Source: Minisyncoccia bacterium (GTDB lineage: Bacteria > Patescibacteriota > Minisyncoccia > JACQLN01). From it: a stretch of 64,000 nt of DNA. The stretch spans positions 2,011 through 66,010 of the forward strand of contig JBASTM010000011.1 in the NCBI GenBank assembly GCA_049274895.1. Reading direction: 5' to 3'. Made by a program: the position numbers and the translations under genes. Shown piece by piece: positions 1-14,974 of the stretch; within the stretch, counting starts at the first letter, position 1, and every line of letters begins with the position of its first letter. Under the pieces are notes generated by a model. That model was not told where the DNA came from, did no database searches, and saw only the letters and a program-made list of their open reading frames with translations.

Positions 1-1015
1 TCATAATCATCTGGGCCACCATCGGCGGCACGCTGGGGCTTGAAGCAAAAACGGAATTGATGGTGCTGCCGCGCCTGACCTCCTCGCGGGCTTTTAAGAT
101 TATGGCTTTGTAGACGGCATTGCCCACCACGTCGGCGGTTATGGTCAAAGACTGGATGATGGGAATGCCGCCTTTTATAAGCGTGCCCAAGTTTTCGGAA
201 AAGCGCGCCAAATATATCTTCTTAAAGATATTCCCAAAAATAGGCAGTTTGAGTTTTATTTTGTCCCAGTAATCCCGCCCGACTTGGGTTTTAAGGGCGT
301 ACACTCCGGAAAACGCGATGCCGCCCATAGCCAAAATTCCCAACCACCAGCTTCCCCTCAAAAAATCGCTTAGGGCTATGATCAATTTGGTCAGCACCGG
401 CAGTTCCTGGCCGGATTCTTCCAAAACGCTGGTCAGCTGGGGCACCACAAAAATCATCATCGCCGCGCCCACCGCCACCAAAGCCGAGATGATAAAAATG
501 GGATAGGTCAGAGCGCCTTTTACTTTTTTATTAAGATCGTAAGAACGCTCCTCGTGGTCGGCCAGATAGTTTAGAACTTCCTGCAGACGGCCCGAGGCCT
601 CGCCGGCCCGCACCACCGAAACATAAAAAAAAGAAAAAACTTTGTTAAACTTTTCCAAAGATTGGGACAGGGCCGTGCCGGAATCCACATCGCCGGCCAC
701 TTCCATAACTATTTTTTTTAAGGCCGGGGGCGATTGTTCGGCCAAGGTGCGCAAAGCCGCCACCAAAGGCACTTGGGCGTCAAACAGCACCGCCAGCTGT
801 CGAGAAAAGATAACAATATCCTGGCTTTTTACTTTATTGAAAAAAGGCAGCTCGCCGCCTAAACTTAAGGCAAAACCTTTTTTCCCTACGGCGATTTCCA
901 AAATCACCAGGCCGTAGCGATGCAAAGATTCCACCGCCGCATCTTGGTTGGGCGCTTCCACGGTTCCAGTTTGGATGGCACCTGCAGCGGTGCGGGCCTG
1001 GTAATTGAATTTCAT
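1..1015 (-). CDS. pilC: Type IV pilus assembly platform protein PilC (GspF family). The C-terminus runs off the window edge.
   Basis: Manual minus-strand translation from the ATG at 1015-1013 gives MKFNYQARTAAGAIQTGTVEAPNQDAAVESLHRYGLVILEI..., typical of the T2SS-F/PilC family. The frame is open to position 1. It lies 8 nt downstream of the pilT stop. Confidence 0.8.
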   Translation of the reverse strand, partial: MKFNYQARTAAGAIQTGTVEAPNQDAAVESLHRYGLVILEIAVGKKGFALSLGGELPFFNKVKSQDIVIFSRQLAVLFDAQVPLVAALRTLAEQSPPALKKIVMEVAGDVDSGTALSQSLEKFNKVFSFFYVSVVRAGEASGRLQEVLNYLADHEERSYDLNKKVKGALTYPIFIISALVAVGAAMMIFVVPQLTSVLEESGQELPVLTKLIIALSDFLRGSWWLGILAMGGIAFSGVYALKTQVGRDYWDKIKLKLPIFGNIFKKIYLARFSENLGTLIKGGIPIIQSLTITADVVGNAVYKAIILKAREEVRRGSTINSVFASSPSVPPMVAQMIM

Positions 1016-1023
1016 TGTTGCTT

Positions 1024-2106
1024 TTAGTGAGACAGTAATGACGACAACTCCGAAGGGTTAAGCGAATAGATCTCGGCGTTTTCCAGTGAGATCTGGCCTT
1101 GGCGGACCAGCTCCGAAAGCGATTTGTTTAAGGAAATCATACCCTTGTCGGTGCTGGTTTCTATGACCAGATCCAATTGGTGTATTTTGTTTTCCCGAAT
1201 AAGATTGCGGACGGCATAGTTGGCAATCAACACCTCCACGGCCGCCACCAAGCCGCCGTCTACCCGGGGCACCAAGCGCTGGGACACCACGCCCAAAAGG
1301 GCTCCGGCCAGTTGGAGGCGTATTTGAGATTGCTGCTCCGGCGGGAAGCTGTCGATGATGCGGTCTATGGTTTGGGCAGCGGAATTGGTGTGCAGGGTGG
1401 CAAAAATCAAATGCCCGGTTTCGGCCGCGGTGACGGCGGTGGAAATAGTTTCCAAATCGCGCATCTCGCCCAACATCACCACGTCGGCATCCTGCCTAAA
1501 GACCGATCGCAACGCTTTGCGGAAACTTAAAGTGTCGGAACCGACTTCGCGCTGTTCTATTATGGCCTTGTCCGGCACAAACAGATACTCAATCGGGTCT
1601 TCTATGGTAACAATGTGATCGCCGCGTTTATGGTTTATCTCATCCACCAGCGCCGCTAAAGTCGTGGACTTGCCGTGGCCGGTCGGCCCGGAAATTATGA
1701 CAAATCCTTGACTGGGCCGGGTAAACTCGCGTAAAACCTGCGGCAAGCCCAATTCTTCTAAAGTTCTGATTTTATGAGAAATAAGCCGCAAAGCGCCTGA
1801 AATATAACCCCGCTGAAGGTAGATATTGGTCCTAAAGCGGACCTTATCCTTAAAACTGAAAGCAAAATCAATTTCCTTGTTTTTTTGGAAAAACTCCTGC
1901 TTTTCGGTGTCCATCAGCGCCAAACACAAACCGGCCGATGATTCAGGCGTAATCATCGGCCGCTGGGTCAACTGGACCAGCTCACCGTCGATGCGCAAAG
2001 TGGGATGACGGCCCGGAGCGATATGCAAGTCGGAAGCCCCTTGTTCGGCGGCCAGCAGTAAAAGATCTTCTATTTCCCGCTGGTAATTGTTCATAAAAAG
2101 CGACAC
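1024..2106 (-). CDS. pilT: Twitching motility ATPase PilT (type IV pilus retraction ATPase)
   Basis: 360 aa with Walker A GPTGHGKST, a DPIEY motif, and Asp/His boxes of the PilT/GspE secretion ATPase family. Confidence 0.85.
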   Translation of the reverse strand: MSLFMNNYQREIEDLLLLAAEQGASDLHIAPGRHPTLRIDGELVQLTQRPMITPESSAGLCLALMDTEKQEFFQKNKEIDFAFSFKDKVRFRTNIYLQRGYISGALRLISHKIRTLEELGLPQVLREFTRPSQGFVIISGPTGHGKSTTLAALVDEINHKRGDHIVTIEDPIEYLFVPDKAIIEQREVGSDTLSFRKALRSVFRQDADVVMLGEMRDLETISTAVTAAETGHLIFATLHTNSAAQTIDRIIDSFPPEQQSQIRLQLAGALLGVVSQRLVPRVDGGLVAAVEVLIANYAVRNLIRENKIHQLDLVIETSTDKGMISLNKSLSELVRQGQISLENAEIYSLNPSELSSLLSH

Positions 2107-2180
2107 TAATTACTAATGACACACGAATTTACGAATGAATTTTATTCGCGTCATTCGAGTGCATTCGTATATTGGTGCCG
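2107..2180 (-). promoter_or_regulatory. Leader-A element (ATTCGTA/TACGAAT repeat array) upstream of pilT
   Basis: Minus strand reads ...attcattcgtaaattcgtgtgtcattag... followed by ATG. Confidence 0.6.
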
Positions 2181-2549
2181 CTACTTTAAAATTTCTTTAA
2201 CTTTGGCCACCACCTCCGTCGGCGTAAAATGGGCTTTGATAATGTAACTTTGCGCCCCCAGTTCTAAACCGCGCTTAACATCGCTGTCCAAACCGAGATT
2301 GGTCAATAAAATTACCGGAATTTTAGCCGTTTGGCCGTCGGATTTTAGGATTTTTAAAACCTCAAAACCGTCTTTTTTGGGCAGGACAATATCCAACAGC
2401 ACCAAATCCGGCATCAGCTCTTTAGCTTTAGCCAAGCCCATCTCGCCGTCCTGCGCCACCACCACGTCAAAACCCACCTCCTTAAACTTGGTGGAATACA
2501 TGTCCAGCAAAAACGGATCGTCCTCCACTAATAATATTTTGTAAGCCAT
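2181..2549 (-). CDS. Stand-alone response regulator receiver (REC, CheY-like) protein
   Basis: 122 aa (MAYKILLVEDDPFLLDMY...DLVLLDIVLPKKDGFEVL). The receiver domain carries a conserved Asp pocket. It sits between pilB and pilT. Confidence 0.8.
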   Translation of the reverse strand: MAYKILLVEDDPFLLDMYSTKFKEVGFDVVVAQDGEMGLAKAKELMPDLVLLDIVLPKKDGFEVLKILKSDGQTAKIPVILLTNLGLDSDVKRGLELGAQSYIIKAHFTPTEVVAKVKEILK

Positions 2550-2660
2550 GCCAATTTTATCTATGAGTGAAGCGAATAGCTATTAAATTGAGCATCCAGC
2601 ACCTTTTGGAAGTTAAATATTTTACCTTGAAAAGGTGCTGGATAAGGTTTGCCAGTTAAA
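2550..2660 (-). promoter_or_regulatory. Leader-B element (conserved roughly 100-nt 5' leader with hairpin) upstream of the REC gene
   Basis: Minus strand reads TCCAGCACCTTTT-loop-AAAAGGTGCTGGA ... ttcgcttcactcatagataaaattggc-ATG. Confidence 0.65.
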
Positions 2661-2696
2661 TTTTATTCGCTCCGCTCCAAAATTTAGGTCAAGCCC

Positions 2697-4430
2697 TTAT
2701 TCCTCCACTACCCTCAATACTTCTTCTATAGACACCAAGCCCACCAGCGCTTTCATTATACCATCCTGTTTCATAGTAATCATCCCCTGCCGCTGGGCTT
2801 CTGCGGCAATGGCAATTTCGGATATGGCCGAGCTTAAAATAATCTTTTCCAAACTGGGCGTCATTTCAAATATCTCAAAAATGCCCACTCGGCCTTTGGT
2901 GCCCTTAAAACCGCAAGCGGCGCAGCCCGGCGCCTCAAAAATCTGCCAGGGCTTTTTAAGACCGTATTTTTGCTGTTCGGATTCCGGCATATCTTTAAGA
3001 GCATCACTGACTATTTTTGAAAACTTGTCGGGCAGGGGCACTGGCTTGAAACATTCTTTGCACATTTTCTTTATCAATCTTTGAGCCATCCCGGCCACCA
3101 AAGTGGAAGGTATCAGGAAAGGATCTATATCCATATCCGCCAAGCGCGGAATAATGCCCAGGGAATCGTTGGTGTGCAATGTAGAAAAAACCAAATGCCC
3201 GGTCAGCGCGGCGTGGGTGGCCAGGCCCGCGGTTTCTTTGTCTCGGATTTCACCCACCATGATAATATTCGGGTCCTGGCGCAAAATACTGCGCAAGCCC
3301 GAAGCAAAAGTAAAGCCGATTTCCGGATGTATCTGGGATTGGTTTACGCCCGAAATGTAATATTCCAAAGGGTCTTCTAAAGTGATGATGTTGACGCCCT
3401 CTTTATTTAAAAAATTAAGCGTGGTGTAAAGCGTGGTAGATTTGCCCGAGCCGGTGGGGCCGGTGATCAGCACGATACCGTAAGGATTTTTTATGGATCT
3501 TTCATAGGTTTCCATATTTCTGCCTATTAAACCCAAATCAGCGAAGGTGCCCACGCCCACCGTGGGATCCAAAATTCTCAAGGCAATCTTTTCGCCAAAG
3601 GCGGTCGGCAGGGTTGACACCCTAAAATCAATTTTGCCGGAGCCGATCTTGGTGCTAAACCGGCCGTCTTGGGGCATGCGCGTCTCGTCAATTTTAAGAT
3701 TAGAAAGGACTTTGATGCGGCTGATGATGGCGTTATGCGCCTCGCGCGGCAGAATGATGGAAGAATGCAGAGTGCCGTCTAATCTAAACCGGACGCGGGT
3801 TTCGTTTTCCAAAGGCTCAATATGGATATCGGAGGCCTTGCCTTCCACGGCGTGGCGCAGAATGACCGCCACCACCTTGGTAATGGGCGCTTCGGCGGTT
3901 ATCTGTTCGACTTTCTCTGTGCGAGACTCGGCCACCGGCCCAACCTCCGAAACAAATTCCTGCTCCAATTCCTCCAAAGCACTGGTAACCTCCCGCCCCA
4001 AGTTGCGGTACTGCCGGGCCACAGCGTCAAAATCAGTGGCCGAGATAATATTGATTTTAGGTACAAAATTATTCTTAATGGCAATAAATTTAAGCGCTTC
4101 ACTGGCCTCAACATCTTCAGGGTTGACCATACCAATGGTAAGTTCATTGCTATTTTTTTCCACCGGCAGGATTTTGTAGTGTAAAACCGCATCCTCCGGA
4201 ATTTCCTGAAGCACCTCGGCCGGTATATTTTTATCAGCTAGATCAAGATAGGGCAGGCCCAAAATGGCGCTCTTGGCGCGCAAGATATCCAAAGGGTTCA
4301 CCCAATTGCGCTTTACCAATTCTGTCTCCAGGCCCGCCGCGTCGGCCGAAACCTGGAGAGACAGACTTTTGATCTGGCTTTCCTTCAACAAACCATTGTC
4401 TATTAAGTAAGCGAGTAATTTTTCTACCAT
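2697..4430 (-). CDS. pilB: Type IV pilus assembly ATPase PilB (GspE family)
   Basis: 577 aa with Walker A GPTGSGKSTT and an N-terminal GspE N-domain. A tetracysteine Zn motif (CKECF...CAACGF) is present. Confidence 0.9.
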   Translation of the reverse strand: MVEKLLAYLIDNGLLKESQIKSLSLQVSADAAGLETELVKRNWVNPLDILRAKSAILGLPYLDLADKNIPAEVLQEIPEDAVLHYKILPVEKNSNELTIGMVNPEDVEASEALKFIAIKNNFVPKINIISATDFDAVARQYRNLGREVTSALEELEQEFVSEVGPVAESRTEKVEQITAEAPITKVVAVILRHAVEGKASDIHIEPLENETRVRFRLDGTLHSSIILPREAHNAIISRIKVLSNLKIDETRMPQDGRFSTKIGSGKIDFRVSTLPTAFGEKIALRILDPTVGVGTFADLGLIGRNMETYERSIKNPYGIVLITGPTGSGKSTTLYTTLNFLNKEGVNIITLEDPLEYYISGVNQSQIHPEIGFTFASGLRSILRQDPNIIMVGEIRDKETAGLATHAALTGHLVFSTLHTNDSLGIIPRLADMDIDPFLIPSTLVAGMAQRLIKKMCKECFKPVPLPDKFSKIVSDALKDMPESEQQKYGLKKPWQIFEAPGCAACGFKGTKGRVGIFEIFEMTPSLEKIILSSAISEIAIAAEAQRQGMITMKQDGIMKALVGLVSIEEVLRVVEE

Positions 4431-4540
4431 GCCAATTTTATCTATGAGCGAAGCGAATAGCTATTAAATTGAGCACCCAGCACCTTTTCAAGGTAAAGAT
4501 ATTTATACATCTAAAAGGTGCTGGGTAAGGTTTGGCCGCC
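4431..4540 (-). promoter_or_regulatory. Leader-B element upstream of pilB
   Basis: The stem changes to CCCAGCACCTTTT / AAAAGGTGCTGGG. This is a compensatory T-A to C-G change relative to the copy at 2550. Confidence 0.65.
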
Positions 4541-4546
4541 AAGCGC

Positions 4547-4834
4547 TTAATCCGAAAAAGGATTATTTTTGCCGGTGGTCTCGGTTTTTAGGGGCAGGCC
4601 CGGCGGGGGCAGCAGATCTCTAAAACGCTCGTCTTCCAAAATTTTTACCTTGAGATCGGAGATTTGATTGTTGCTGGCCGTTGTTGGGTTCGCCGGCGGC
4701 AAGGCGGTGCTGGGCAGGGCGCTTTTCTTAAAAATACCAAAATAGACAATAGCCGCGCTGGTTAAAACCAGCACAATAAACACTGTTAAAAACAACCGCT
4801 TACGTTTGATTTCTTTGGTAGCTACGACAGGCAT
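4547..4834 (-). CDS. Small Pro-rich membrane-anchored protein (possible PilP-like pilus assembly component)
   Basis: 95 aa with an N-terminal TM helix. It is embedded in the pilMNO-pilB gene string. A leader-A element sits directly upstream. Confidence 0.4.
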   Translation of the reverse strand: MPVVATKEIKRKRLFLTVFIVLVLTSAAIVYFGIFKKSALPSTALPPANPTTASNNQISDLKVKILEDERFRDLLPPPGLPLKTETTGKNNPFSD

Positions 4835-4920
4835 GCTTTTACGAAATACGAATACTTACGAATTTACGAATGGGATTGGAATTTTATTAGTATATTCGTA
4901 TCCATTCGTAATTCGTAAAT
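4835..4920 (-). promoter_or_regulatory. Leader-A element (4x ATTCGTA array forming a long imperfect palindrome) upstream of the 4834 gene
   Basis: Minus strand reads ...cattcgtaaattcgtaagtattcgtatttcgtaaaag-ATG. Confidence 0.65.
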
Positions 4921-5520
4921 CTACTTTTTAAGTACATACGTTTTCATACTAACACTGTAATCAATGATCGGGTCCACATCGACAACCAATTCGCCTTCGG
5001 ATGTTTTCTTTTGGGCCACCGCAAAAGAAATCTTGGTAACATCCAGCAGACGCAAACTTTTTTCCACCGCGCCCAGCCAATTCTTAAAAGAGCCGTAATT
5101 GCCGGAGGCGCTAACTCCCACCGTCAAGGTTTTTATCATTTCTTTGCTGGCGGCAACAACAGCTCGCGAATTGGGAGTCCGGGCGCTGGTATCCTCCGGA
5201 GCTGACTCCACAATAACCCTCACCAAATTCAAACCGTTTTGAGCCGCCAGATTTTCCATAATACTGATCATCTCCGGCTTAAACTCTAAAGATGGCACCG
5301 CCTGCTCCAACCTTTCCACGTTGCTTTTTTGTGAATCCAAAACCTGATTGACGGCATTGAGCTTGTCTATAACCTGGCGTTCCAATTCTATGGATTTTTT
5401 CTTTAAGGCCGCCTCTTGCCTTAGCGCCGCCACACCCGACCAGCTGGGGAGTACCACCAGCCAGACCAGCGCCACCAAGCCGGCCGCCACTAAAATATTT
5501 ATGATGAACTTGCTCGACAT
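4921..5520 (-). CDS. pilO: PilO-like pilus assembly protein
   Basis: 199 aa with an N-terminal TM helix and a coiled coil. It lies immediately downstream of the pilN-like gene. Confidence 0.55.
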   Translation of the reverse strand: MSSKFIINILVAAGLVALVWLVVLPSWSGVAALRQEAALKKKSIELERQVIDKLNAVNQVLDSQKSNVERLEQAVPSLEFKPEMISIMENLAAQNGLNLVRVIVESAPEDTSARTPNSRAVVAASKEMIKTLTVGVSASGNYGSFKNWLGAVEKSLRLLDVTKISFAVAQKKTSEGELVVDVDPIIDYSVSMKTYVLKK

Positions 5521-6092
5521 TATTTTTTTGTAATAAAATCCTTGGAAAAATTAACAACTAAGGTAAAATCCACCCGCCCATCTTCGGCTAAGTTGATATT
5601 GGAAGCCGCAACTGAAACCACTTGGGGCGTATCTTCGAATATTTTTATCTGCTGGGCCAAAACCCCATAGCTGGGAGAGCGGCCCGTCAGTAAAAAAGAG
5701 GCATCAGTATCATCGCCATCAAAACTCTTGAACGCGACCGTATTCAAAGTTTTTTCTCCCAACATCTTAAAAACCTGCGACCAGTAGCGGTGGTTATCCA
5801 AGATATTCTTAAAAACTTCCAGAACATTATTAAGATTATTAAGCCGCGTCTCCAAACTCATATCTCTCTGGCTGGTCAGACGCTGAAGCTCGGTATTAAA
5901 AGAGGCCACCTCGCTGTTCAAACGATATTTCCAAAAGTAAAGCCCGGCTGTTACCGCCAACGCTACGGCGATAAGCGCCAAACCCAGCTTGGCCGTGGCG
6001 CTTAACTCCAGCGAGGGGCTCCGGAAAGTGACAAAGCGCGGCAAGCCCCGGCTGTTTTTTTCTTTTTTGGGTATTAAAGAGATGTTATCCAT
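5520..6092 (-). CDS. pilN: PilN-like pilus assembly protein
   Basis: 190 aa with a single TM (LGLALIAVALAVTAGLYFW) followed by a coiled coil. It follows pilM. Confidence 0.55.
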   Translation of the reverse strand: MDNISLIPKKEKNSRGLPRFVTFRSPSLELSATAKLGLALIAVALAVTAGLYFWKYRLNSEVASFNTELQRLTSQRDMSLETRLNNLNNVLEVFKNILDNHRYWSQVFKMLGEKTLNTVAFKSFDGDDTDASFLLTGRSPSYGVLAQQIKIFEDTPQVVSVAASNINLAEDGRVDFTLVVNFSKDFITKK

Positions 6093-6158
6093 GCCAATTT
6101 TGTCTATGAGCGAAGCCGAGCTCAGCTCGGCGAAGCGATAGATTCTTAGACAAAGCCC
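6093..6158 (-). promoter_or_regulatory. Leader-B-related element (start-proximal half only) upstream of the pilN-like gene
   Basis: Minus strand reads ...gcttcgctcatagacaaaattggc-ATG. Confidence 0.5.
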
Positions 6159-7250
6159 TTACAGTTCCCTCATGGCCAAACCCACCGCCACCGCCAAACT
6201 GGGCGAAAGTTCCCGCCGGAAAATCTGTTCTAAAGCCGGATCAAATTTTACCCGGCCTAGGGAACTGCCGATAATAATTTCCACCCCCAAGCGGCGGCTA
6301 AGATATTCCGTCAGGCCGGGCAGATTGGCCGCGCCGCCGGTTAGGATAATTTTCTCCACCCGTTTTGATGTTTTTTTATTCAACAAGCTTTCCATTCTTT
6401 CCACTTCACTCACCAACTTATCGATAAAGGGTGCGATGACTTGAGCCAATCCTTTTTCCGCCGAAGCGTCCGATACCCCGGCTGTTTTTTTTAACTCTTC
6501 GGCTCGGCTCGGCGCCACATTCAAACTGTGCCCCACCACTTTGGTTATTTCTTTACCCGACATATCGGCGCTGTGGCTCATCAAAATAAAACCGTGGCTG
6601 ATGATGGTCAGATTGGTGCTGCGAGCCCCCATATCTACAATCATTATGGTCCCTTGATCGGGACCCACCAGTGACCGGGCTAAGCTAAAACTTTCCGATT
6701 CCAAGGCCGCTAATTCCAAATTGGCGGCTTTGGCAATCCTTTGGTACTTAGACACCACCTCTTTGGGCACGGCTATTAGGAGTATAGTCACCTTGCCTTT
6801 ACCTGTTGGGGTTGGGGCAGTTGAGGCTACCAAGCCCTCTTCCGGAATGATCAGCCAATCCAGAACCACCTCGGACAGCGGCACGGGAATATAAGAACGA
6901 GCCTCAAAAGGCACGGCGCTTTCTAATTCCTTGGCGCTCAAGCCGGGTAATTCCATTACCGTGAGGAAACTGGAAAATATGGGGATGGACATTACCGCCG
7001 AACGAGCCTTGACCCGCGCCGAAGCCAAAAGATGTTTCAAGACGCTGGCCACATCGTTTTCGGATATCTTGATTCCCAGAGGCGCATTGGGGCTGCCCAA
7101 TATTTCTCCAAAAAAATCCGAGCCGTCTATCAAGCCGTAATTCGCTAATTTTAAATGTTCACCTTCCCGTTCCAGCTCCACTATCTTTACCGAAGATGTG
7201 CCAACATCAACTCCAAGCTGACGCCGGGTTTTTCGACTAAATGGCCACAT
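6159..7250 (-). CDS. pilM: Type IV pilus assembly protein PilM (actin-like ATPase)
   Basis: 363 aa (MWPFSRKTRRQLGVDVGTSSVKIVELE...). FtsA/PilM actin-fold motifs are present. Confidence 0.8.
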   Translation of the reverse strand: MWPFSRKTRRQLGVDVGTSSVKIVELEREGEHLKLANYGLIDGSDFFGEILGSPNAPLGIKISENDVASVLKHLLASARVKARSAVMSIPIFSSFLTVMELPGLSAKELESAVPFEARSYIPVPLSEVVLDWLIIPEEGLVASTAPTPTGKGKVTILLIAVPKEVVSKYQRIAKAANLELAALESESFSLARSLVGPDQGTIMIVDMGARSTNLTIISHGFILMSHSADMSGKEITKVVGHSLNVAPSRAEELKKTAGVSDASAEKGLAQVIAPFIDKLVSEVERMESLLNKKTSKRVEKIILTGGAANLPGLTEYLSRRLGVEIIIGSSLGRVKFDPALEQIFRRELSPSLAVAVGLAMREL

Positions 7251-7356
7251 AATTATGTTGTGTCTACCCTTAAATTATATCACGATTCCGCTCAAAAATT
7301 CAGATAAAACGGTTATCCACACGCGTTTTTAATTTGAGATTTATTGGGTTATTCTG

Positions 7357-8034
7357 ATGTTGATGATCCTAGTAAAATATATAGAACAGACGCTACTGCC
7401 TTCGTATTGCCTCAATTGCAGGCAGGACACGCCGGAAGAGCCCAAAAGTTTGCGTTGGCTGTGTTTGAACTGCCATTTGTTATTGTTACCTCGTTGGCAA
7501 AAATCGCCCTTAAAACCGGAACTGGAGGAATCTTTTTACATCTTTGACTACCAAAAAGATAAATTGGCCAAAAAACTCATCCACGCCCTAAAATACAATT
7601 GGGTTAAAGAGATAGCCGAGACTTTTAAGGTGGCCTTAGAACAGGAACGCTCCAATATTAAAAAAATGGTTTTTGATTTTATCATCCCGGTGCCTTTGCA
7701 TCCCCGGCGGCTAAGAGAACGCGGTTTTAATCAGAGCGAGCTTATCGCCGAAAAAGTAGCCGAGCTGACCGCCAAGCCGATTATTGAAAATATAATAAAA
7801 AGAAAAACTTACCGCCGGCCGCAGATGGAAATAAAAAACAGGGCAGCGCGGATAAAGAATGCCCAGAACATTTTTGAGCTTGTGCAAAATGTGCAAAATC
7901 GGATTTTGCACCATAAGACTGTTTTAATTGTGGACGATGTGGCCACCACCGGCGCCACCTTAAAAGAATGCGCCCGAGTTTTGAAAAACTCGGGCGCGAG
8001 CAAGGTACTGTCGTTCACCCTGGCACAAGATTGA
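7357..8034 (+). CDS. comFC: ComF family competence protein (ComFC, phosphoribosyltransferase domain)
   Basis: 225 aa with an N-terminal 4-Cys motif (CLNCRQ...CLNCH). The C-terminal PRTase motif is VLIVDDVATTGATL. It is divergent from pilM. Confidence 0.8.
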   Translation: MLMILVKYIEQTLLPSYCLNCRQDTPEEPKSLRWLCLNCHLLLLPRWQKSPLKPELEESFYIFDYQKDKLAKKLIHALKYNWVKEIAETFKVALEQERSNIKKMVFDFIIPVPLHPRRLRERGFNQSELIAEKVAELTAKPIIENIIKRKTYRRPQMEIKNRAARIKNAQNIFELVQNVQNRILHHKTVLIVDDVATTGATLKECARVLKNSGASKVLSFTLAQD

Positions 8035-8035
8035 T

Positions 8036-8344
8036 CTAAAGATGAACTGATTTTTTTCTCCAACCGTTCTCTGCCGTTATTAGATCGGCCATTAACATAG
8101 GAAGCTCATCAAACTCTATATAAACTGCCAACAGTTTATCTCTAAAGAAATAGTAGACATCTACTACTACAAAATTGAGCGCACTTTTCTCACCTTTTGA
8201 GGTCATGAAATCTATAAAAAGTCTTAAACCTATAAATACCGTCGGGAGATATACTGTCTTATAGGCAAAATCACCCCATCCTTTGCCCTCCAATGATTCA
8301 TATTCTTCATACTGATCTATATCTAAAGCCAATTCAACTTCCAT
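8036..8344 (-). CDS. Hypothetical protein
   Basis: 102-aa ORF in an AT-rich segment. It has an acidic N-terminus and a central hydrophobic stretch. No recognisable family. Confidence 0.3.
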   Translation of the reverse strand: MEVELALDIDQYEEYESLEGKGWGDFAYKTVYLPTVFIGLRLFIDFMTSKGEKSALNFVVVDVYYFFRDKLLAVYIEFDELPMLMADLITAENGWRKKSVHL

Positions 8345-8538
8345 GGACGCAACCTCCTCTTCTAAGATTTATTAAAAAACTATCCTCTGCCGTACCCCAA
8401 CAAACTACCATTCCATGCCTAATTAGTCAAATCCATTTAGCACGAGCTCACGATCGTATTCTCGTGCTAAATACGGTTTGTACTTATTAAATTTAATGAA
8501 TCCAATGAAATTGATCTAATAGATCTATCTCATAAGAC

Positions 8539-10680
8539 CTATTTGCGGCGGCCGGAAATTATTTCCTCGGCGATGTTTTTGGGCACCTCTTCGTAGTGGT
8601 TGAACTCCATCGTGTATGACGCCCGACCCTCGCTTAAAGAACGCAGTTGGGTGGAATAGCCGAACATTTCGGATAAGGGCACTTTGGCGTCTATAACTTT
8701 AAGCGCCGAATCGCCCACCGCGCTGGTGCCGCCCCGCGCCGCCATTTGCTCGATGCGGGCGCGTTTGGACGAAAGATCCCCGGTAACTTCGCCCAAAAAC
8801 TTTTCGGGCACGATCACCTCAACTTTCATTACTGGCTCCAACAAAACCGGGCTCGCCCTTTTAGCGCCTTCTTGAAAAGCTATACTGCCGGCGATTTTGA
8901 AAGCCATTTCCGAAGAGTCCACCTCGTGAAATGAACCATCATAAAGCGTGGCTTTAACATCAACCACCGGGTAGCCGGCCACCACGCCTTTATCTATCGC
9001 CTCTTTGATGCCTTTTTCCACCGCCGGAATAAACTCCTGCGGAATGGCGCCGCCTTTAATGGCGTTGACAAACTCAAACCCGGCGCCGCGATCCAGCGGC
9101 TCCAATTTTAAGCGCACGTGGCCGTACTGGCCGCGGCCGCCCGACTGGCGGATATATTTGCCTTCGGCCTCGGCCGTGCTTTTAACGGTTTCTTTGTAAG
9201 CTACCTGCGGCCGGCCGACGTTGGCATCCACCTTAAACTCCCGTTTCATACGGTCCACAATTATTTCCAAATGCAATTCGCCCATGCCGGCAATTAAAGT
9301 ATCGCCGGTCTCCTCGTCGCCTCTTATTCTAAAAGTCGGATCTTCATCGGCCAGGCGGCGCAAAGCCAAACCCATTTTTTCCTGATCGGCTTTGGTTTTG
9401 GGCTCAATCCGCACCGAGATGACCGGCTCGGGAAAGACTATCTGCTCCAGCAGTATCGGTTTGTCTTCATCTGAAAGAGTGTCGCCGGTTCGGGTGTATT
9501 TTAAGCCCACCGCCGCGCCGATCTCGCCGGCAAAAATCTCTTTGACTTCTTCGCGGTGGTTGGCGTGCATTCTTAAAATGCGTCCGATTCTTTCTTTTTG
9601 ATTTTTATTGACGTTCAGAACATAGGAACCGGCTTCCAGCGTACCTGAATAGACTCTAAAAAAAGTCAGTTGGCCCACAAAAGGATCACTGGCAACTTTG
9701 AAAGCCAAGGCTGAAAAAGCGACTTCGTCGCTAGCCGGGCGTTCCTCCGAAGCCCCGGTCTTGGGATTGACTCCTTTTACCGGAGGTAAATCTACGGGGC
9801 TCGGCAAATAATAGAGCACGGCGTCCAACATCAACTGCACACCTTTATTTTTTAAGGCCGAACCGCACAAAACTGGAATAAATTTACCGGCAATAGCGGC
9901 GGCCCGCAAAGCTTTTCTTAGTTCAACCAAGGTAGGTTTTTCCCCGCCCAAATAACGCTCCATCAAGACGTCGTCGGTTTCAACAACTTTTTCTACCAGT
10001 TCGGCCCGGCATTTTTCGGCTTCAACTTTCATATCATCGGGAATATCGGCTTCAATAACCTGCTCGCCGTGCTCGCCTTCAAAACGATAGGCCTTCATTT
10101 TCATTAGATCCACCACACCCTCAAAATTTTCCTCCAAACCGATCGGTAATTGGACTTTTACAGCTTTAGAGGTTAAGCGTTCTAAAATGGAAGCATAAGA
10201 TTTTTCAAAAGAAGCGCCGGTGCGGTCCAGTTTGTTTATAAAACAAATTCTAGGCACATTATATTTATCGGCTTGGCGCCAGACGGTTTCGGACTGGGGC
10301 TCCACGCCGGCTACGCCGTCAAAAACCACCACCGCGCCGTCCAAAACGCGAAGCGACCGTTCCACCTCCACCGTAAAATCAACGTGGCCGGGCGTATCGA
10401 TTATGTTAATACGCATCTCTTTTTCCTTGGTTTTGACCCCGCCGGCCCGATCTTCGGTCGGCGTCCAAAAACAGGTGGTAGCCGCGGCGGTTATAGTGAT
10501 GCCCCGCTCCTGTTCCTGTTCCATCCAATCCATGATGGCCTCGCCTTCGTGGACCTCGCCGATCTTGTGCGACACGCCCGTGTAAAACAAAACCCGCTCG
10601 GAAACGGTCGTTTTTCCGGCATCAATGTGAGCTACAATGCCAATATCTCTGGTGCGTTCGATGGGGTAATCACGTGACAT
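8539..10680 (-). CDS. fusA: Translation elongation factor G
   Basis: 713 aa ([25 protein letters not shown]...). GTPase G1-G4 motifs are present. Confidence 0.95.
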
Positions 10681-10810
10681 ATGCCAATTTTATTTACGAA
10701 CGAAGTGAGTAAATATTAAAATTGAGCACCCCGAGCGCAGTCGAGGGGTAATCCTTCGACCTAGCTCAGGATAAGGTTTTGTTACCGCTCGCTTCGCTCG
10801 CGGACAAAGC
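10681..10810 (-). promoter_or_regulatory. Leader-B-related element upstream of fusA
   Basis: Minus strand reads ...gtgctcaattttaatatttactcacttcgttcgtaaataaaattggc-ATG. Confidence 0.5.
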
Positions 10811-10812
10811 CC

Positions 10813-11280
10813 TTACCAACTAAAATGCGCGAAAGCTTTATTAGCTTCGGCCATGCGGTGGGTGTCGTTTTTCTTCTTGATGGCGTTGCCTTCGTTTTTG
10901 GCGGCCAAGATGATCTCCTCGGCCAGTTTCTGGTCCATGGGCTTGCCCTTGCCGGCCCGAGCCGCCAGAATAAGCCACCTCATCGCCAGAGCCAATTTGC
11001 GCTCGCCTCTCACTTCGCGCGGGACCTGGTAATTGGCGCCGCCAATGCGGCGGGATTTTACTTCCAGTTGGGGCGAAACATTTTTGATGGCTGTTTCAAA
11101 AACTTCCAAACCGGGCTTTTTCTCTTTCTGCTCTATATTATCCAAGGCCTGGTAAAAAATCTTCTGGGACACGCTCTTTTCCCCATGCTGCATTATTTTA
11201 TTAATAAACCGGGCGGCCAAAACACTGCCGTGTTTATAATCGGGTTTAATATCGCGTTTGATGTTTATTTTGCGTCGCAT
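10813..11280 (-). CDS. rpsG: 30S ribosomal protein S7
   Basis: 155 aa S7 family. Confidence 0.9.
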   Translation of the reverse strand: MRRKINIKRDIKPDYKHGSVLAARFINKIMQHGEKSVSQKIFYQALDNIEQKEKKPGLEVFETAIKNVSPQLEVKSRRIGGANYQVPREVRGERKLALAMRWLILAARAGKGKPMDQKLAEEIILAAKNEGNAIKKKNDTHRMAEANKAFAHFSW

Positions 11281-11285
11281 GAATC

Positions 11286-11313
11286 AGCTTTTAGCTTTTA
11301 GCTTTTAGCTTCT
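11286..11313. repeat. (AGCTTTT)x4 heptamer tandem repeat in the rpsL-rpsG intercistronic region. It is flanked by inverted TAGCTT/AAGCTA copies.
   Basis: Direct reading: cagcttttagcttttagcttttagcttcttagg, then aagctaataagctaggaagcta. Confidence 0.8.
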
Positions 11314-11355
11314 TAGGATTTTACTAAAAAGCTAATAAGCTAGGAAGCTAATTTT

Positions 11356-11766
11356 CTATTTGGGAGTCTTAGCCCCATACTTGCTCCGCCGCTGCTTGCG
11401 GCCCTCTACGCCGGTAGCATCCAGCAGGCCGCGCACAATGTGATAGCGGATGCCGGGCAAATCTTTAACCCGCCCGCCCCGCAAAATCACCACCGAGTGT
11501 TCCTGCAGATTGTGGCCGATGCCGGGAATATAGGCCGTCACCTCCATACCGTTGGATAATCTCACCCGCGCGATTTTGCGCAAAGCCGAGTTGGGTTTTT
11601 TGGGCGTCATCGTGCGCACCGAAAGGCACACGCCTCTTTTGAAAGGCGACTGGAAAGCGGAGTATCTGTTTTTTAAGCTATTGAACGCAAAAGTCAGCGC
11701 CGGCGATTTGGATTTGCGCTTGGAGGTTTTTCTTGGTCTTTTGATTAGTTGATTTATCGTCGGCAT
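11356..11766 (-). CDS. rpsL: 30S ribosomal protein S12
   Basis: 136 aa with the S12 family signature [10 protein letters not shown]...GHNLQEHS. Confidence 0.95.
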
Positions 11767-11774
11767 TGATTATA

Positions 11775-11806
11775 AAGGTCAGACCTTGCTAGCAAGGTCT
11801 GACCTT
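11775..11806. promoter_or_regulatory. 32-nt perfect palindrome 9 nt upstream of the rpsL start codon
   Basis: aaggtcagaccttgctagcaaggtctgacctt equals its own reverse complement. Confidence 0.7.
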
Positions 11807-11914
11807 GATCTTACTAGGACACATCGGATTTTAAGCTGAAATCATTATAGATTAAAACAGGCCTTGGCGCAAGAACCAGCATCTACCGAGCTTGCGGCCG
11901 CAACCTCGGTAGAT

Positions 11915-11967
11915 GAAATTAAATATAATAATAAAATGGGGTGAGCACGGTGTTTTGCGCTCACCCC
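11915..11967 (-). terminator. Rho-independent terminator (9-bp GC stem plus U-rich tail) closing the upstream structured RNA
   Basis: Minus strand reads ggggtgagc-gcaaaacaccgt-gctcacccc followed by auuuuauuauuauauuu. Confidence 0.7.
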
Positions 11968-12330
11968 TGACGTCGCCGACCCCCGAAGAGAAGAGGGTGT
12001 CGACTACTTGCTTGTTGAAATCCTTCGGGCCGGTTGAATTTATAGCTGTCTCAACCGGGGTCAATCTAAGTGGGAGCGGTATTTCACTGTCGGCTCCCTC
12101 CGACCCGGAAGTCGGAGCTCTAAGCCCAGCTTACTCTACGCGAAACTTAGATTCCCGTTGGGACCGGTGCGTGGGAATTGAACCCACCTATCTCGACTAC
12201 GTTCGCCTCCGAAGCCTCCGACTCCGATCTCTCCGCGTAGGCTCCCCCAGAGGCACATCGAGATAAACCGTCTGACACCGTTTCCATGCAAGCAAATAGA
12301 TGCTAGCAAAACATCTGGCCGAGGTCAATA
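11968..12330 (-). ncRNA. Structured non-coding RNA candidate of unassigned class (rnpB-like or a novel RNA)
   Basis: This is a 620-nt gap with no credible ORF. It contains multiple GC-rich helices and a T-loop-like hairpin gtggg-ttcaatt-cccac. It is bounded by an upstream 17-bp hairpin and a downstream intrinsic terminator. Boundaries are approximate. Confidence 0.35.
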
Positions 12331-12388
12331 GCAGATAAGACATCTAATAATGTTGAACATCCGATGTTCAACATTATTAGACTAATGA

Positions 12389-13006
12389 TCAAAACAACAA
12401 CGGGGAGCCGGTTATCAGCTGGAAGATTACGGGAATTATCGGAACTATCAAAGGAAACAAAAAGAAGATAAATATCAACACCAAAAACATACCATAACGC
12501 TCCAGTATAACGAGCTGGCGTTCGTAGCGGTAGGGCAAAACGGCGGCTAAAATTTTGGAGCCGTCCAAGGGCGGTATGGGAATTAAATTAAAAATACCTA
12601 AAAGGATATTGATGTAGACTATCAAAGACAACCCCAAGCCAGCCGCGGCCGGGATAGGCGCCCAGCGTAAAGCCAAACCAAAAAACAAGGCCACGGCAAA
12701 ATTGGACAAAGGCCCGGCCGCGGCCACGGCGGCCGGGCCCCATTTTTGATTTTTAAGATTATAGGGGTTATAAGGCACGGGCTTAGCCCAACCGAATATA
12801 AACCCGCCCGCGAGATACGAAATCAGCGGCACTAAAAACGAACCCACAAAATCAAGATGTTTGAGAGGGTTAAAACTTAGCCGGCCAAGGTCGCGGGCGG
12901 TGGGATCGCCTAACTTGTTAGCCGCAAGACCATGAGAAACCTCGTGCGCCACCACCGACATAATCAGCACCGCTAAATTGAAAATAAGCAATACCGTTTG
13001 ATCCAT
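12389..13006 (-). CDS. Site-2 protease family zinc metalloprotease (peptidase M50)
   Basis: 205 aa, polytopic. It has HEVSHG (HExxH) and the NLIPIPPLDG motif. Confidence 0.8.
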   Translation of the reverse strand: MDQTVLLIFNLAVLIMSVVAHEVSHGLAANKLGDPTARDLGRLSFNPLKHLDFVGSFLVPLISYLAGGFIFGWAKPVPYNPYNLKNQKWGPAAVAAAGPLSNFAVALFFGLALRWAPIPAAAGLGLSLIVYINILLGIFNLIPIPPLDGSKILAAVLPYRYERQLVILERYGMFLVLIFIFFLFPLIVPIIPVIFQLITGSPLLF

Positions 13007-13046
13007 ATAATGTTTTGTGTTAATGTGATTCTACCATACAAAAAAT

Positions 13047-13086
13047 CATTCGTATATTCGTATAAATTCGTATTTCGTAAAGATAT
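13047..13086 (+). promoter_or_regulatory. Leader-A element upstream of rpmB
   Basis: Reads cattcgtatattcgtataaattcgtatttcgtaaagatat-ATG. Confidence 0.65.
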
Positions 13087-13305
13087 ATGACTTGCCCCGT
13101 ATGTAAAAAAATAAGCGGTTTTCGCATCAAGCGCGTGCTTTTACGTGGCCATTATAATCCCACGGTCAAACAAAAACAGCATCCTAATTTGCAATGGATT
13201 AAAATCGGCTCGGGCAAAAGGATCAAAGTCTGCGCCAGCTGCATCAAGGCCTCTCAAAAAAATCCCAACTACTTTAAAGAGGCGGCTCCGAATTTGGTTA
13301 AATAA
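13087..13305 (+). CDS. rpmB: 50S ribosomal protein L28
   Basis: 72 aa with C-x2-C ... PNLQ ... C-x2-C zinc-ribbon spacing typical of L28. A leader-A element sits directly upstream and a terminator downstream. Confidence 0.65.
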   Translation: MTCPVCKKISGFRIKRVLLRGHYNPTVKQKQHPNLQWIKIGSGKRIKVCASCIKASQKNPNYFKEAAPNLVK

Positions 13306-13335
13306 ATACTCTATCGAGGTTTAACCTCGATACAA

Positions 13336-13365
13336 AAGACCCGACCATGGTCGGGTCTTTTGATT
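13336..13365 (+). terminator. Rho-independent terminator of rpmB
   Basis: Hairpin gacccgacc-atgg-tcgggtc followed by ttttgatt. Confidence 0.75.
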
Positions 13366-13374
13366 CGGTTTGGT

Positions 13375-13445
13375 GTCGGGCTGCGGGGAATCGAACCCCG
13401 GCTGCAAGACCCCCAGCCTCGCGTACTACCATTATACGACAGCCC
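13375..13445 (-). tRNA. tRNA-Pro (anticodon GGG)
   Basis: A manual cloverleaf fits. Acceptor is CGGGCTG/CAGCCCG with U8. D-arm is GTAT-AATGGTA-GTAC. Anticodon stem is CGAGG/TCTTG with loop CTGGGGG. T-arm is CGGGG-TTCGATT-CCCCG. Discriminator is A and CCA is not encoded. Confidence 0.75.
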
Positions 13446-13451
13446 GTTAAA

Positions 13452-13952
13452 CTACTTACCATGCCCGAAACCACCATCTCGGATGCGGAAATCGTCTAAA
13501 ATATCCAAACCGCGTTGGTCTTTGATGGTGGGATCTTGGACTAGATTATAAATGGCGTCGCCGGTGTCTTGGTGCAAAATGGCATAGAGCCGAGTTCCGA
13601 GCTTATATTCTTTAACCAAATCCACTATCACATATTTATGCTCGCCCGCCGCCAAAAAACGGCTGGTACCCACCAATGTGCCGTACTTGTCGTACGGGTT
13701 TTCGTACACGGCCACGAAGCCGGGTCGGGCCAAAGTCACATTATCAACATAAACCCGATTTTCTATGATCACGCCGTCGCTATAGGGTTTTTGATCTATT
13801 ATTTTAACCGAAGCCAAGGTGGACGCCCGAATAGCAAAATCCGGCGTCGGATTGGCCCAGCCCCTCAACCAAACCACGCCAAAATAAAGGCCGAGGGCTA
13901 TTAAACCAAAAAACAAGGCGTAAAACGGCACCTCCAACCTGATTCTTTTCAT
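13452..13952 (-). CDS. Hypothetical membrane-anchored exported protein
   Basis: 166 aa with an N-terminal TM/signal anchor. No recognised motif. Confidence 0.4.
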   Translation of the reverse strand: MKRIRLEVPFYALFFGLIALGLYFGVVWLRGWANPTPDFAIRASTLASVKIIDQKPYSDGVIIENRVYVDNVTLARPGFVAVYENPYDKYGTLVGTSRFLAAGEHKYVIVDLVKEYKLGTRLYAILHQDTGDAIYNLVQDPTIKDQRGLDILDDFRIRDGGFGHGK

Positions 13953-13999
13953 ATTTATTGATTGTATACGAAAATTGACGGTATAATCAAGTGAACCTT

Positions 14000-14974
14000 A
14001 TGTTTGAACAAACTCTCGAAAATTTTCCCAAACAGTTTGAGTGGCGACCGGAGATAGGCAATGCCGAGAAACTCACTCCAAAAGAAAAGATAATTGTTTT
14101 AGGTATGGGCGGCTCGCACCTGGCGGCCGACCTCGCCCGAACTTGGGCGTCTTATTGGGGCAAGATAATGATTCACTCCGACTACGGCCTGCCGGAATTG
14201 ACCGACGAGGAGTTAGCCAGCTATTTGATTATCGCGAGCTCGCACTCGGGCAATACCGAGGAAGTTATTGACGGACTCAATATGGCACTGGAAAAAAACT
14301 TGCCGGTCACGGTAATAGCGAGCGGTGGCCAGTTACTAGAAATAGCCCAAAAGCAAAATCTCCCTTACATCAAACTACCCGCGGAAAATATACAGCCCCG
14401 AGTGGCTCTGGGGCACTCTTTACTGGCCATATTAAAGCTGGCTGGCCAAGAAGAAACCATTAAGGAACTGTACGAACTGGTTCACATGTTGAAAGTGGAG
14501 GAAATAAAACCCGAGGCCCAAAAACTGGCCGAGAAACTACGCGGCCAAATACCAATAATTTATGCTTCCACGCGCAAGTTGCCTTTGGCTGTAAACTGGA
14601 AGGTAAAGTTTAACGAGACGGCCAAGATTCCGGCCTTCGCTAATGCCGTGCCGGAACTTAACCACAACGAAATGGCCGGGTTTGATGCTTCGCCGACCAG
14701 CCGAGAGCTAGGCGAAAAATTCTCGTTTATAATCCTAGAAGATAAATACGACCACCTTAAAAATCAAAAGCGGCTGGCCGCTTTGGCCGAGCTATTAAAG
14801 GCGAGGGGGCTAACAGTGGAAAGAATACAACTTCAAGGCCAAAACCACTGGCATAAGATATTAAGCTCGGTGGTGATGGCCGACTGGACCAGTTATTATT
14901 TAGCCGAATTTTACGGAGTGGAAGTGGAAAACGTGCCGACAGTAGAAGAATTCAAAAAGAAGCTAACTGGTTAA
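14000..14974 (+). CDS. Bifunctional phosphoglucose/phosphomannose isomerase-like SIS-domain protein
   Basis: SIS motif LGMGGSHLAADL. The start is placed at ATG 14000. The ORF-track start at 13991 is GTG. A sigma70-like TTGATT-18-TATAAT sits at 13958-13987. Confidence 0.6.
   Translation: MFEQTLENFPKQFEWRPEIGNAEKLTPKEKIIVLGMGGSHLAADLARTWASYWGKIMIHSDYGLPELTDEELASYLIIASSHSGNTEEVIDGLNMALEKNLPVTVIASGGQLLEIAQKQNLPYIKLPAENIQPRVALGHSLLAILKLAGQEETIKELYELVHMLKVEEIKPEAQKLAEKLRGQIPIIYASTRKLPLAVNWKVKFNETAKIPAFANAVPELNHNEMAGFDASPTSRELGEKFSFIILEDKYDHLKNQKRLAALAELLKARGLTVERIQLQGQNHWHKILSSVVMADWTSYYLAEFYGVEVENVPTVEEFKKKLTG

Follow-up and report, generated by a model that had tools for sequence, protein, structure and literature searches.

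Why is the same short stretch of DNA repeated directly before the start codons of genes for a receiver-domain protein (REC), PilB, a PilN-like protein and EF-G (fusA)? The four copies lie within 64,000 nucleotides (hereafter the window) of a Minisyncoccia bacterium (Patescibacteriota; assembly GCA_049274895.1, contig JBASTM010000011.1, forward-strand positions 2,011 to 66,010). The original prediction treated them as a conserved 5' element of roughly 100 nt, Leader-B, that either links pilus genes and fusA in a regulon or marks a lineage-specific promoter or translation-initiation module. The start-proximal block so described is real, but the limit of about 100 nt is not, as the element continues upstream as far as the stop codon of the gene before. 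Read along the coding strand, a complete cassette occupies the entire intergenic spacer, bounded by the stop codon of the upstream gene and the start codon of the downstream one, and consists of three adjacent hairpins, P0, P1 and P2. Shorter forms consist of P1-P2, of P2 alone, or of a single collapsed hairpin. The helices are maintained by compensating changes, the cassette has no tie to particular genes, and it is gained, lost or replaced between close strains.

The motif CATAGATAAAATTGGCATG, with up to 3 mismatches allowed, occurs at four sites in the window (2547-2565, 4428-4446, 6090-6108 and 10680-10698), all of them on the minus strand, where the adjoining genes are also encoded. The chance expectation from shuffled sequence is 0.05, and none of 100 shuffles reaches four copies. 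All four adjoin start codons, as had been claimed, except that the EF-G copy (copy D) is two nt off: its junction reads GGCAT-ATG, placing the start codon two nt further on. The reported similarity of copies A and B also holds, with identities of 98% over 40 nt, 87% over 82 nt and 84% over the last 110 nt. Both contain both arms of the hairpin CCAGCACCTTTT...AAAAGGTGCTGG (A, 2596-2607 and 2630-2641; B, 4477-4488 and 4513-4524). The compensatory change first noticed in this hairpin, which is P1, is genuine: its closing pair is U-A in copy A and C-G in copy B, and the loops are unrelated. The hairpin is confined to A and B, however; copy C lacks both it and the 5' half of the conserved block, and copy D has a different hairpin in that place.

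The conserved start-proximal 50 nt are themselves a hairpin. P2 is an AU-rich hairpin of approximately 47-50 nt whose 3' arm is the TAGATAAAATTGGC / '...TARAYAAAATTGGC' motif and whose last or second-last pair contains the A of the AUG; its consensus is UGC(U)CAAUUUURU(AG)YUAY(UC)RY(UUC)RY(UC)RUARAYAAAAUUGGCA. A scan of one genome per species (GTDB) with RYTCRTARAYAAAATTGGCAT returned 56 loci. About 45 of these are in metagenome-assembled genomes (MAGs) of Patescibacteria, and all of them have the conserved block upstream of the motif, followed by ATG and an open reading frame (ORF). Thirteen matches from outside the Candidate Phyla Radiation (CPR) lack the upstream block and are not recovered by the covariance model. 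Among 44 genome-derived copies, 95.4% of P2 helix cells are paired and five pairs are changed on both sides (62 cells), compared with approximately 40% pairing and at most one both-side-changed pair in slid-register controls. Unaided, RNAalifold predicts the same P2 helices. Because the genome sample had been selected on the 3' arm, a second sample was drawn from metagenomes on the 5' (left) arm only, and the 3' arm was present in about 52 of its 55 copies. In the model alignment of this independent sample, 96% of P2 cells pair and there are 11 compensatory pairs (88 cells), a result matched by 0 of 500 shuffles. Diverged copies preserve the pairing through several arm changes (for instance CAUGAUUGU/ACAAUCAUG), and copy C and the copies at the comparison loci L009, L014 and L033 carry additional apical hairpins that differ in length. 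Within the UC/UC internal loop, the left UC is invariant in 44/44 copies although it is unpaired. Predicted folding energies of P2 range from -7 to -11 kcal/mol.

This pairing bears on the proposal that TAGATAAAAT is the -10 box of a lineage-specific promoter producing nearly leaderless transcripts. A TAAAAT hexamer does lie 4 nt before the ATG, and the genome has few Shine-Dalgarno sequences: strong ones precede only 3-4 of approximately 55 window ORFs (8036-8344, 35785-37341 and 37705-38685), and most window starts follow A/U-rich sequence. Nevertheless, the variable positions of TAGATAAAAT covary with the 5' arm (pair 19-85 is A-U in 34 copies and G-C in 18; pair 23-82 is U-A in 34 and C-G in 20), which makes the -10-like stretch the 3' arm of a helix. 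The hexamer is CAAAAT in one third of copies, and diverged copies alter it and keep the pairing. The element also lies inside tightly conserved ribosomal-protein operons, and copies at operon starts carry their own TATAAT upstream. Under established sigma-70 geometry, a 4-nt discriminator is too short for transcription to start at the A. Additionally, a sigma-70 consensus scan of positions 1-14000 found no sense-strand site in the four copies, and the total number of sites equalled the shuffle expectation. A promoter is thus a very improbable explanation.

The middle module, P1, is a long, GC-rich hairpin whose sequence varies. In at least 30 of 44 copies its helix, of 10 bp or more, fits exactly between UUA and UGCUC; the foot is rich in C on its 5' side and in G on its 3' side. 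P1 sequences fall into a handful of types common to different copies and genomes; that of copy D, for instance, recurs in L028, L041, L042, L111 and L112.

P0 occurs upstream of P1 where a co-directional gene precedes, and its basal helix holds the stop codon of that gene. Pairing of the stop codon is complete in 22 of 23 copies, in basal-helix variants that include UAAGG/CCUUA, UAAAGG/CCUUUA and UGAAGG/CCUUCA. The last coding nucleotide, immediately before the stop, pairs compensatorily as U-A, A-U, G-C or G.U. Across eight tabulated positions around the stop (-2 to +3), 129 cells form Watson-Crick pairs, 9 form G.U pairs, none forms any other pair type and 46 are unpaired. A strict pattern places P0 directly against a co-directional ORF's stop codon in at least 31 of 112 matches. 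Selection on base pairing, as originally claimed for P1, is therefore supported, and the covariation in P2 and P0 is much stronger than that which first suggested it.

The outer modules may be related to each other. The P2 model recognises P0 solely on the opposite strand (10778-10808, plus strand, 25.9 bits; also in L009, L011, L012, L036, L039 and L105), and P0 therefore resembles an inverted P2-like unit, although the likeness is partial and P0 is present in at least 31 of 112 copies only. Among the non-Watson-Crick cells of P2 read on the sense strand, A.C combinations outnumber G.U (25 versus 10; alignment A3), the opposite of P0; these counts favour the sense strand for P0 and do not for P2. 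Kissing between the apices of P0 (GAG..CGA) and P2 (UCG..CUC) is thermodynamically possible and is used in the minimum-free-energy (MFE) fold of copy A; no covariation between the two apices was seen, by reading, in the few informative loci. The copies in the window are listed in Table 1.

Table 1. Leader-B cassettes of the window, their modules and the genes that follow them. R1, covariance model.
Feature	Positions	Strand	Description
Copy A, whole cassette	2550-2699	minus	Preceding stop codon to start; fold prediction prefers an extended fold
Copy A, P0	2643-2700	minus	Basal helix AUAAGG/CCUUAU with PilB stop UAA (2697-2699), around a variable hairpin with apex GGAGCGGAGCGAA; from MFE fold and stop-pairing table
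Copy A, P1	2595-2642	minus	(U)CCAGCACCUUUU-loop-AAAAGGUGCUGG(A); 13 pairs, flush between UUA and UGCUC
Copy A, P2	2549-2594	minus	AU-rich conserved hairpin UGCUCAAUUUAAUAGCUAUUCGCUUCACUCAUAGAUAAAAUUGGCA; ends in A of REC ATG; R1 71.9 bits; fold -7.3 kcal/mol
Gene after copy A	2181-2549	minus	REC; ATG 2547-2549
Copy B, whole cassette	4431-4549	minus	Preceding stop codon to start
Copy B, reduced P0	4526-4550	minus	UAAG...CUUA around UUGGCGGCCAA; begins at stop codon (4547-4549) of ORF 4547-4834
Copy B, P1	4476-4525	minus	Stem as in copy A, C-G closing pair, unrelated loop; 15 pairs
Copy B, P2	4430-4475	minus	Ends in A of PilB ATG; R1 77.2 bits; fold -9.6 kcal/mol
Gene after copy B	2697-4430	minus	PilB; ATG 4428-4430
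Copy C, collapsed cassette	6093-6161	minus	Between pilM (stop 6159-6161) and pilN-like gene; in the predicted fold, stop-proximal GGGCUUUGUCUA pairs straight with start-proximal UAGACAAAAUUGGC
Copy C, apex	6115-6131	minus	Small hairpin GCCGAGCUGAGCUCGGC
Gene after copy C	5520-6092	minus	PilN-like, beside PilO and PilM; ATG 6090-6092
Copy D, whole cassette	10681-10817	minus	Preceding stop codon to start; predicted fold has three local hairpins
Copy D, P0	10771-10817	minus	GGUAAGG/CCUUAUC with rpsG stop codon (10813-10815), then UUUGUCCGC...GCGG..ACAAA; apex GAGCGAAGCGAG
Copy D, P1	10730-10770	minus	Other sequence type at same place: CCUGAGC..GGUCGAAGG..CCCCUCGAC..GCUCGGG
Copy D, P2	10681-10729	minus	Followed by AU, then fusA ATG; R1 74.4 bits; fold -11.2 kcal/mol, z = -4.6
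Gene after copy D	8539-10680	minus	EF-G (fusA), downstream of S12 and S7; ATG 10678-10680
'Empty' junction	1013-1026	minus	pilT stop - AAGCAACA - pilC ATG; 8-nt spacer

Copy C has neither P1 nor the 5' arm of P2 and is missed by the full-length model; an identical copy is present in locus L114 from the same sample. ORF 4547-4834, which precedes copy B, and the rpsG product had no match in exact-protein look-ups.

The covariance model and the scan of relatives also place the element in a broader context. Cassettes were found at approximately 45 CPR genome loci and on 54 metagenome contigs, their carriers being very small groundwater bacteria of the CPR/Parcubacteria type, and the additional copies repeat both the covariation and the position at gene starts. 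In 96 of 122 model matches an ATG that opens an ORF stands exactly at the model position, and most of the others are displaced by -5 to +9 nt, which agrees with the earlier suggestion of a lineage-specific module at translation starts. More than 30 unrelated gene families (Pfam) lie downstream, many of them inside the str, S10, spc and alpha ribosomal-protein operons. They include S4, S5, S7, S11, S19, L10, L13, L36, SecY, NusG, NusB and RpoD, as well as GyrB, CysRS, SSB, PilB/C/N, ABC ATPases and EF-G; rpmJ (L36) follows a cassette in three loci. Some operons are densely occupied, with three cassettes in about 1.5 kb of the L36-S13-S11-S4 region of L042 (a 3333-nt contig), four in L024, and five or more on contig Ga0209541_10000532 (L070/L092). 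Copies that begin an operon lack P0 and have no ORF before them; by consensus-level inference, a TATAAT lies 45-110 nt 5' of P2 in these copies. In two copies, L062 (GGAGGUGAU) and L009:3596-3670, P2 is followed by a canonical Shine-Dalgarno sequence. No full copy was found in reverse orientation.

With Rfam 15, a gathering-threshold scan gave tRNA-Pro only, and an E<=5 scan of positions 2000-11500 gave no match on any copy. Pattern scans of IMG/VR and blastn searches of INPHARED phages and PLSDB plasmids returned 0 matches, and a full-text literature search found no description of the element. Several MAGs deposited as third-party annotation (TPA) carry the label 'Candidatus Saccharibacteria', and one such MAG, CAYHXG01, is syntenic with the window. 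Because these labels are unverified, breadth is claimed for the Parcubacteria group only, within which the cassette spans several candidate phyla.

The variety of downstream genes is relevant to the suggestion that Leader-B is a common regulon signal for pilus genes and fusA, be it through an operator, a leader of riboswitch type or a leader peptide. The pilus cluster does contain three of the window's four copies. However, the more than 30 unrelated downstream families, the absence of an Rfam match and the swapping of cassettes between near-identical strains described below make such a signal barely credible. A leader peptide was also considered in its own right. The GUG-started 12-codon frame in P2 is not conserved: it varies from 4 to 19 codons, reads through in 29 of 132 copies and has no start in 16 of 132; furthermore, changes are non-synonymous but preserve pairs, and apex insertions are not multiples of three.

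Relatives at several depths of divergence differ in the cassettes that they carry at corresponding junctions. A related MAG (L026) is syntenic with the pilus cluster of the window at 56-89% amino-acid identity and has Leader-B only before pilN; its pilB and REC are preceded by another cassette family, namely two copies of a different stop-to-start palindrome of approximately 110 nt. Similarly, L041, whose PilT is 92% identical, holds a full P0-P1-P2 cassette at the pilT-pilC junction, where the window reads TAA-AAGCAACA-ATG. The stop and start positions of the filled and empty sites are the same, and there is no target-site duplication.

The most striking case is that of close strains. Two Hainich groundwater contigs (L111 and L112) match the window exactly in the REC protein and at 93-98% in coding DNA, yet cassettes differ at five of six junctions among the three, and L112 is a mosaic of both states. 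At pilM-pilN, the collapsed copy C of the window corresponds to a full variant in L111. At pilO-ORF95, a 'UACGAAU' hairpin in the window is replaced by a full Leader-B in L111 and L112; conversely, at ORF95-pilB, copy B is replaced in both contigs by a 42-nt 'CCUAUAGG' hairpin. At pilB-REC, the cassettes of L111 and L112 have the same ends as copy A and a different interior. The REC-pilT spacer is of the 'UACGAAU' type in the window and in L112, and of the 'CCUAUAGG' type in L111. Only at pilT-pilC are the states alike, with an 8-nt spacer in the window and one of 7-8 nt in L111. Near-duplicate whole cassettes are also present at neighbouring junctions (A/B, 84%; L042a/b, 86.5%). At the other extreme, the cassette has been kept before the same genes over deep divergence (S4, 43.5%; S11, 75%; CysRS, 70%; SecY, 87%; also L36).

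Such turnover could be that of a purely selfish DNA palindrome of the REPIN or PATE kind, whose hairpins act as single-stranded DNA for a tyrosine (HUH) transposase and have no role as RNA; position and orientation would then follow from compaction of the genome and from strand bias in genes and replication. Swapping and presence or absence at strain level, together with sequence sub-types common within and between genomes, are in keeping with this. So are the recognition of P0 by the P2 model only on the opposite strand, which gives an inverted-doublet architecture, and the A.C excess in P2 with a G.U excess in P0, which fits one unit copied both ways. Additionally, nearly all window genes are on one strand (approximately 50 of 55 ORFs on the minus strand). 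Nevertheless, the ATG is abutted exactly in about 80% of copies, and the stop codon is abutted too, with compensating changes in coding nucleotides. The cassette is conserved across deep lineages and before the same genes, no full copy is reversed, the unpaired GTAG/CGTC tag is absent, and no transposase was identified in the 64-kb window and the short loci, for which no systematic scan was made. Purely selfish DNA is therefore judged a rather unlikely explanation.

The explanation placed first here, tentatively and with a probability somewhat short of even, is that Leader-B is a repeated intergenic palindrome of the REP/REPIN/ERIC kind that is co-transcribed, kept folded in mRNA and has a coupling-type role. 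The cassette would spread, or be copied, between gene junctions and be co-transcribed with the operon, and selection would maintain its folding in the mRNA. Folding would loop the spacer out such that stop and start remain side by side, and P2 would cover an A-rich start region lacking a Shine-Dalgarno sequence. Initiation downstream would thereby depend on the ribosome that terminates upstream and locally melts the structure (translational coupling), and cleavage of the hairpins by RNase III would be a likely additional fate. Co-transcription, coupling and cleavage are all inferred, and the likely role is either translational coupling or RNase III processing.

Several observations weigh against this explanation. 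Operon-start copies have neither an upstream ORF nor P0, and coupling therefore cannot be the role of P2 there; in L062 and L009:3596-3670, P2 is followed by a canonical Shine-Dalgarno sequence. P2 is weak, at -7 to -11 kcal/mol, and may therefore mask nothing, and its excess of A.C over G.U gives no support for folding as sense RNA. Strict orientation, exact abutment of the ATG and retention before the same genes are unlike ordinary REP elements or miniature inverted-repeat transposable elements, and neither the target-site duplication looked for at pilT-pilC nor, within the limits given above, a transposase was seen. Finally, conservation of P2 across the Parcubacteria candidate phyla suggests recognition by a conserved host factor.

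A third possibility is that the cassette punctuates mRNA, as a putative RNase III processing and stability module in which cuts at P1 and/or P2 would split operon transcripts, P0 would protect the upstream 3' end, and P2 or the freed A-rich 3' arm would remain as a short downstream leader. The shape of P2 is like that of T7 R1.1-type sites: its approximately 21 helical steps with a bulge and an internal loop are compatible with RNase III. P1 stems are near-perfect duplexes of 12-22 bp whose sequence varies freely, and neighbouring spacers are perfect hairpins of 28-30 bp. This mechanism would account for operon-first P1-P2 copies and for copies with a Shine-Dalgarno sequence after P2. CPR genomes retain RNase III, along with RNase J and PNPase (PMC12641178), and processing by RNase III is therefore the chief rival of, or complement to, coupling. 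However, many P1 stems, at 12-15 bp, and the cassettes of other families, at 37-42 nt, would be short substrates for this enzyme, the compensated pairing of the stop codon itself is left unexplained, and junctions work without any cassette. Processing as the whole account is therefore considered possible, though well on the unlikely side.

A broader version, which is doubtful at present, would make modular, interchangeable stop-to-start hairpins the gene-punctuation system of CPR/Parcubacteria operons, mobile and targeted to junctions, with Leader-B as its most conserved member. RNase III or the terminating ribosome would cut or remodel the cassettes, giving separately stabilised cistrons that have no Shine-Dalgarno sequence or are almost leaderless. 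If correct, this would be a bacterial analogue of mitochondrial tRNA punctuation combined with a new junction-targeted mobile element, shuffled between junctions and strains.

P2 might alternatively complete a split ribosome-binding site by bringing the G-rich foot GGGGUGCUC, just 5' of P2, next to the AUG; phage T4 genes 38 and 25 provide a precedent. As read from the sequence, GGGGUGCUC makes 8 of 9 pairs with the canonical anti-Shine-Dalgarno, and the effective spacing across the hairpin is approximately 6-8 nt. The canonical Shine-Dalgarno sequence GGAGGUGAU in L062 indicates that the anti-Shine-Dalgarno of these organisms is probably canonical. However, the G run is the 3' arm of P1, hence paired, and its conservation is poor in copies with a different P1 or none (GGAUGCUC, GAAGUGCUC and AAAGCUUC), so a split site carries very little weight. 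Two further candidates were set aside. For an intrinsic terminator, P1 is followed by UGCUCAAUUUU with no U tract, and only a weak 5-pair match was found, in copy D. For boxA-like antitermination, UGCUCAAUUUU does resemble boxA (UGCUCUUUAACA), but the stretch is the paired 5' arm of P2.

Other intra-operon spacers of the window are also single long hairpins that run from stop to start. A second cassette family occupies 2107-2180 (REC to pilT) and 4835-4920 (pilO to ORF95) on the minus strand, with arms made of runs of UACGAAU/AUUCGUA units that extend from just after the stop to just before the start; a 'cattcgtaag' stretch upstream of ORF 28441-30165 is kin to it. The rpsL-rpsG spacer (11281-11355, minus strand) is a hairpin of approximately 28 bp built of UAGCUU/AAGCUA repeat units. 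Between fusA and a 102-aa ORF at 8036-8344, a 194-nt spacer (8345-8538, minus strand) contains three hairpins and then a canonical Shine-Dalgarno sequence, AGAGGAGG. This ORF has no precomputed Pfam match and, from its position, may encode S10. Relatives carry more stop-to-start palindrome families ('UAGUUC...GAACUAAG', 'GGUCCUAUAAGACC' and 'UUUGGAUUUUGAG'), located at L026 1415-1528 and 3263-3373, L111 1831-1872 and 4108-4144, and L008 3152-3253. A tandem TTTGAGA run and a related 71-nt repeat in the window (61051-61094 and 59301-59371; families D4 and D12) include a counterpart to the last of these, as the tandem run resembles the 'UUUGGAUUUUGAG' spacer of L008. Direct repeats of approximately 210 nt (17043-17251/17424-17632, 87%; 50467-50684/51285-51502, 73%) apparently lie inside coding DNA. 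The tRNA-Pro(GGG) gene at 13375-13446 (minus strand) is the sole Rfam or ARAGORN match in the window.

Overall, the CPR/Patescibacteria make up a large share of bacterial diversity, and their gene expression is almost unexplored. Leader-B is a widespread, covarying, RNA-forming element suitable as a new Rfam family, with a consistent architecture in which spacer hairpins pair with the upstream stop codon and the downstream start codon, and whole cassettes are exchanged unusually quickly among strains with 93-98% identity in their genes. Should the cassettes couple or punctuate cistrons, they would account for translation in operons that are poor in Shine-Dalgarno sequences. Cassettes are also strain markers and a source of assembly breaks and miscalled gene starts in CPR MAGs, and "promoter-like" AT-rich motifs beside start codons should carry no promoter annotation.

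The known kind to which Leader-B belongs is that of intergenic palindromic repeats, and what is new is the sealing of the spacer from stop to start, the three modules, and breadth across the Parcubacteria group combined with strain-level swapping. REP sequences are palindromic repeats that, as inverted doublets (REPINs), are mobilised by REP-associated tyrosine transposases (RAYTs) (PMC3116915, PMC3337134, PMC3733652); their families include sub-families with complementary stems, G.T pairs and termini that provide stop codons (PMC3733652). Leader-B resembles them as a set of short imperfect extragenic palindromes that are repeated, with complementary-stem sub-families and G.T(U) pairs (as defined in PMC3733652). 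As in REP/REPIN, the termini supply or abut stop codons and presence varies between strains, and the inverted-doublet architecture may have a partial parallel in a P0 that resembles an inverted P2-like unit around a spacer. In contrast, the cassette has no unpaired GTAG/CGTC tag (GUAG occurs in one P2 sub-type only, paired in a CUAC/GUAG inner helix), its orientation is strict, its 3' unit ends in the next start codon, and its middle module is a long hairpin of its own. Likewise, no RAYT was identified, though no systematic scan was made, and the family, instead of being limited to a single species complex, spans several Parcubacteria candidate phyla.

ERIC/IRU elements of enterobacteria and Correia elements (CREE/NEMIS) of Neisseria are imperfect palindromes of approximately 100-150 nt in operons that influence the processing or stability of mRNA, through RNase E and RNase III, respectively. 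Leader-B is similar in being an intergenic palindrome of presumably transcribed operon regions that is predicted to form RNA hairpins and is patchy between strains. However, its sequence is unrelated, it has neither a TA target duplication nor Correia-type terminal inverted repeats, and it runs exactly from stop to start, whereas ERIC and Correia elements occur in either orientation and at variable distances from genes. In T7 early mRNA, RNase III cuts at intercistronic sites, and RNase III-dependent unmasking of starts is known, for instance, for E. coli adhE. The cassettes share with the T7 sites bulged intercistronic hairpins of about two helical turns that are sequence-tolerant and structure-dependent; those sites, however, are not repeated mobile-like cassettes and leave a Shine-Dalgarno leader, and cleavage of Leader-B is putative. 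Finally, RNA structure couples translation at the MS2 coat-replicase and lysis junctions and in ribosomal-protein operons. As in these systems, the downstream start is paired and the end of the upstream cistron lies in a helix that a ribosome would have to open on terminating, and in its predicted fold copy C pairs the stop-proximal and start-proximal strands directly. Full cassettes differ in that they hold stop and start in separate hairpins (P0 and P2) and are generic and interchangeable.

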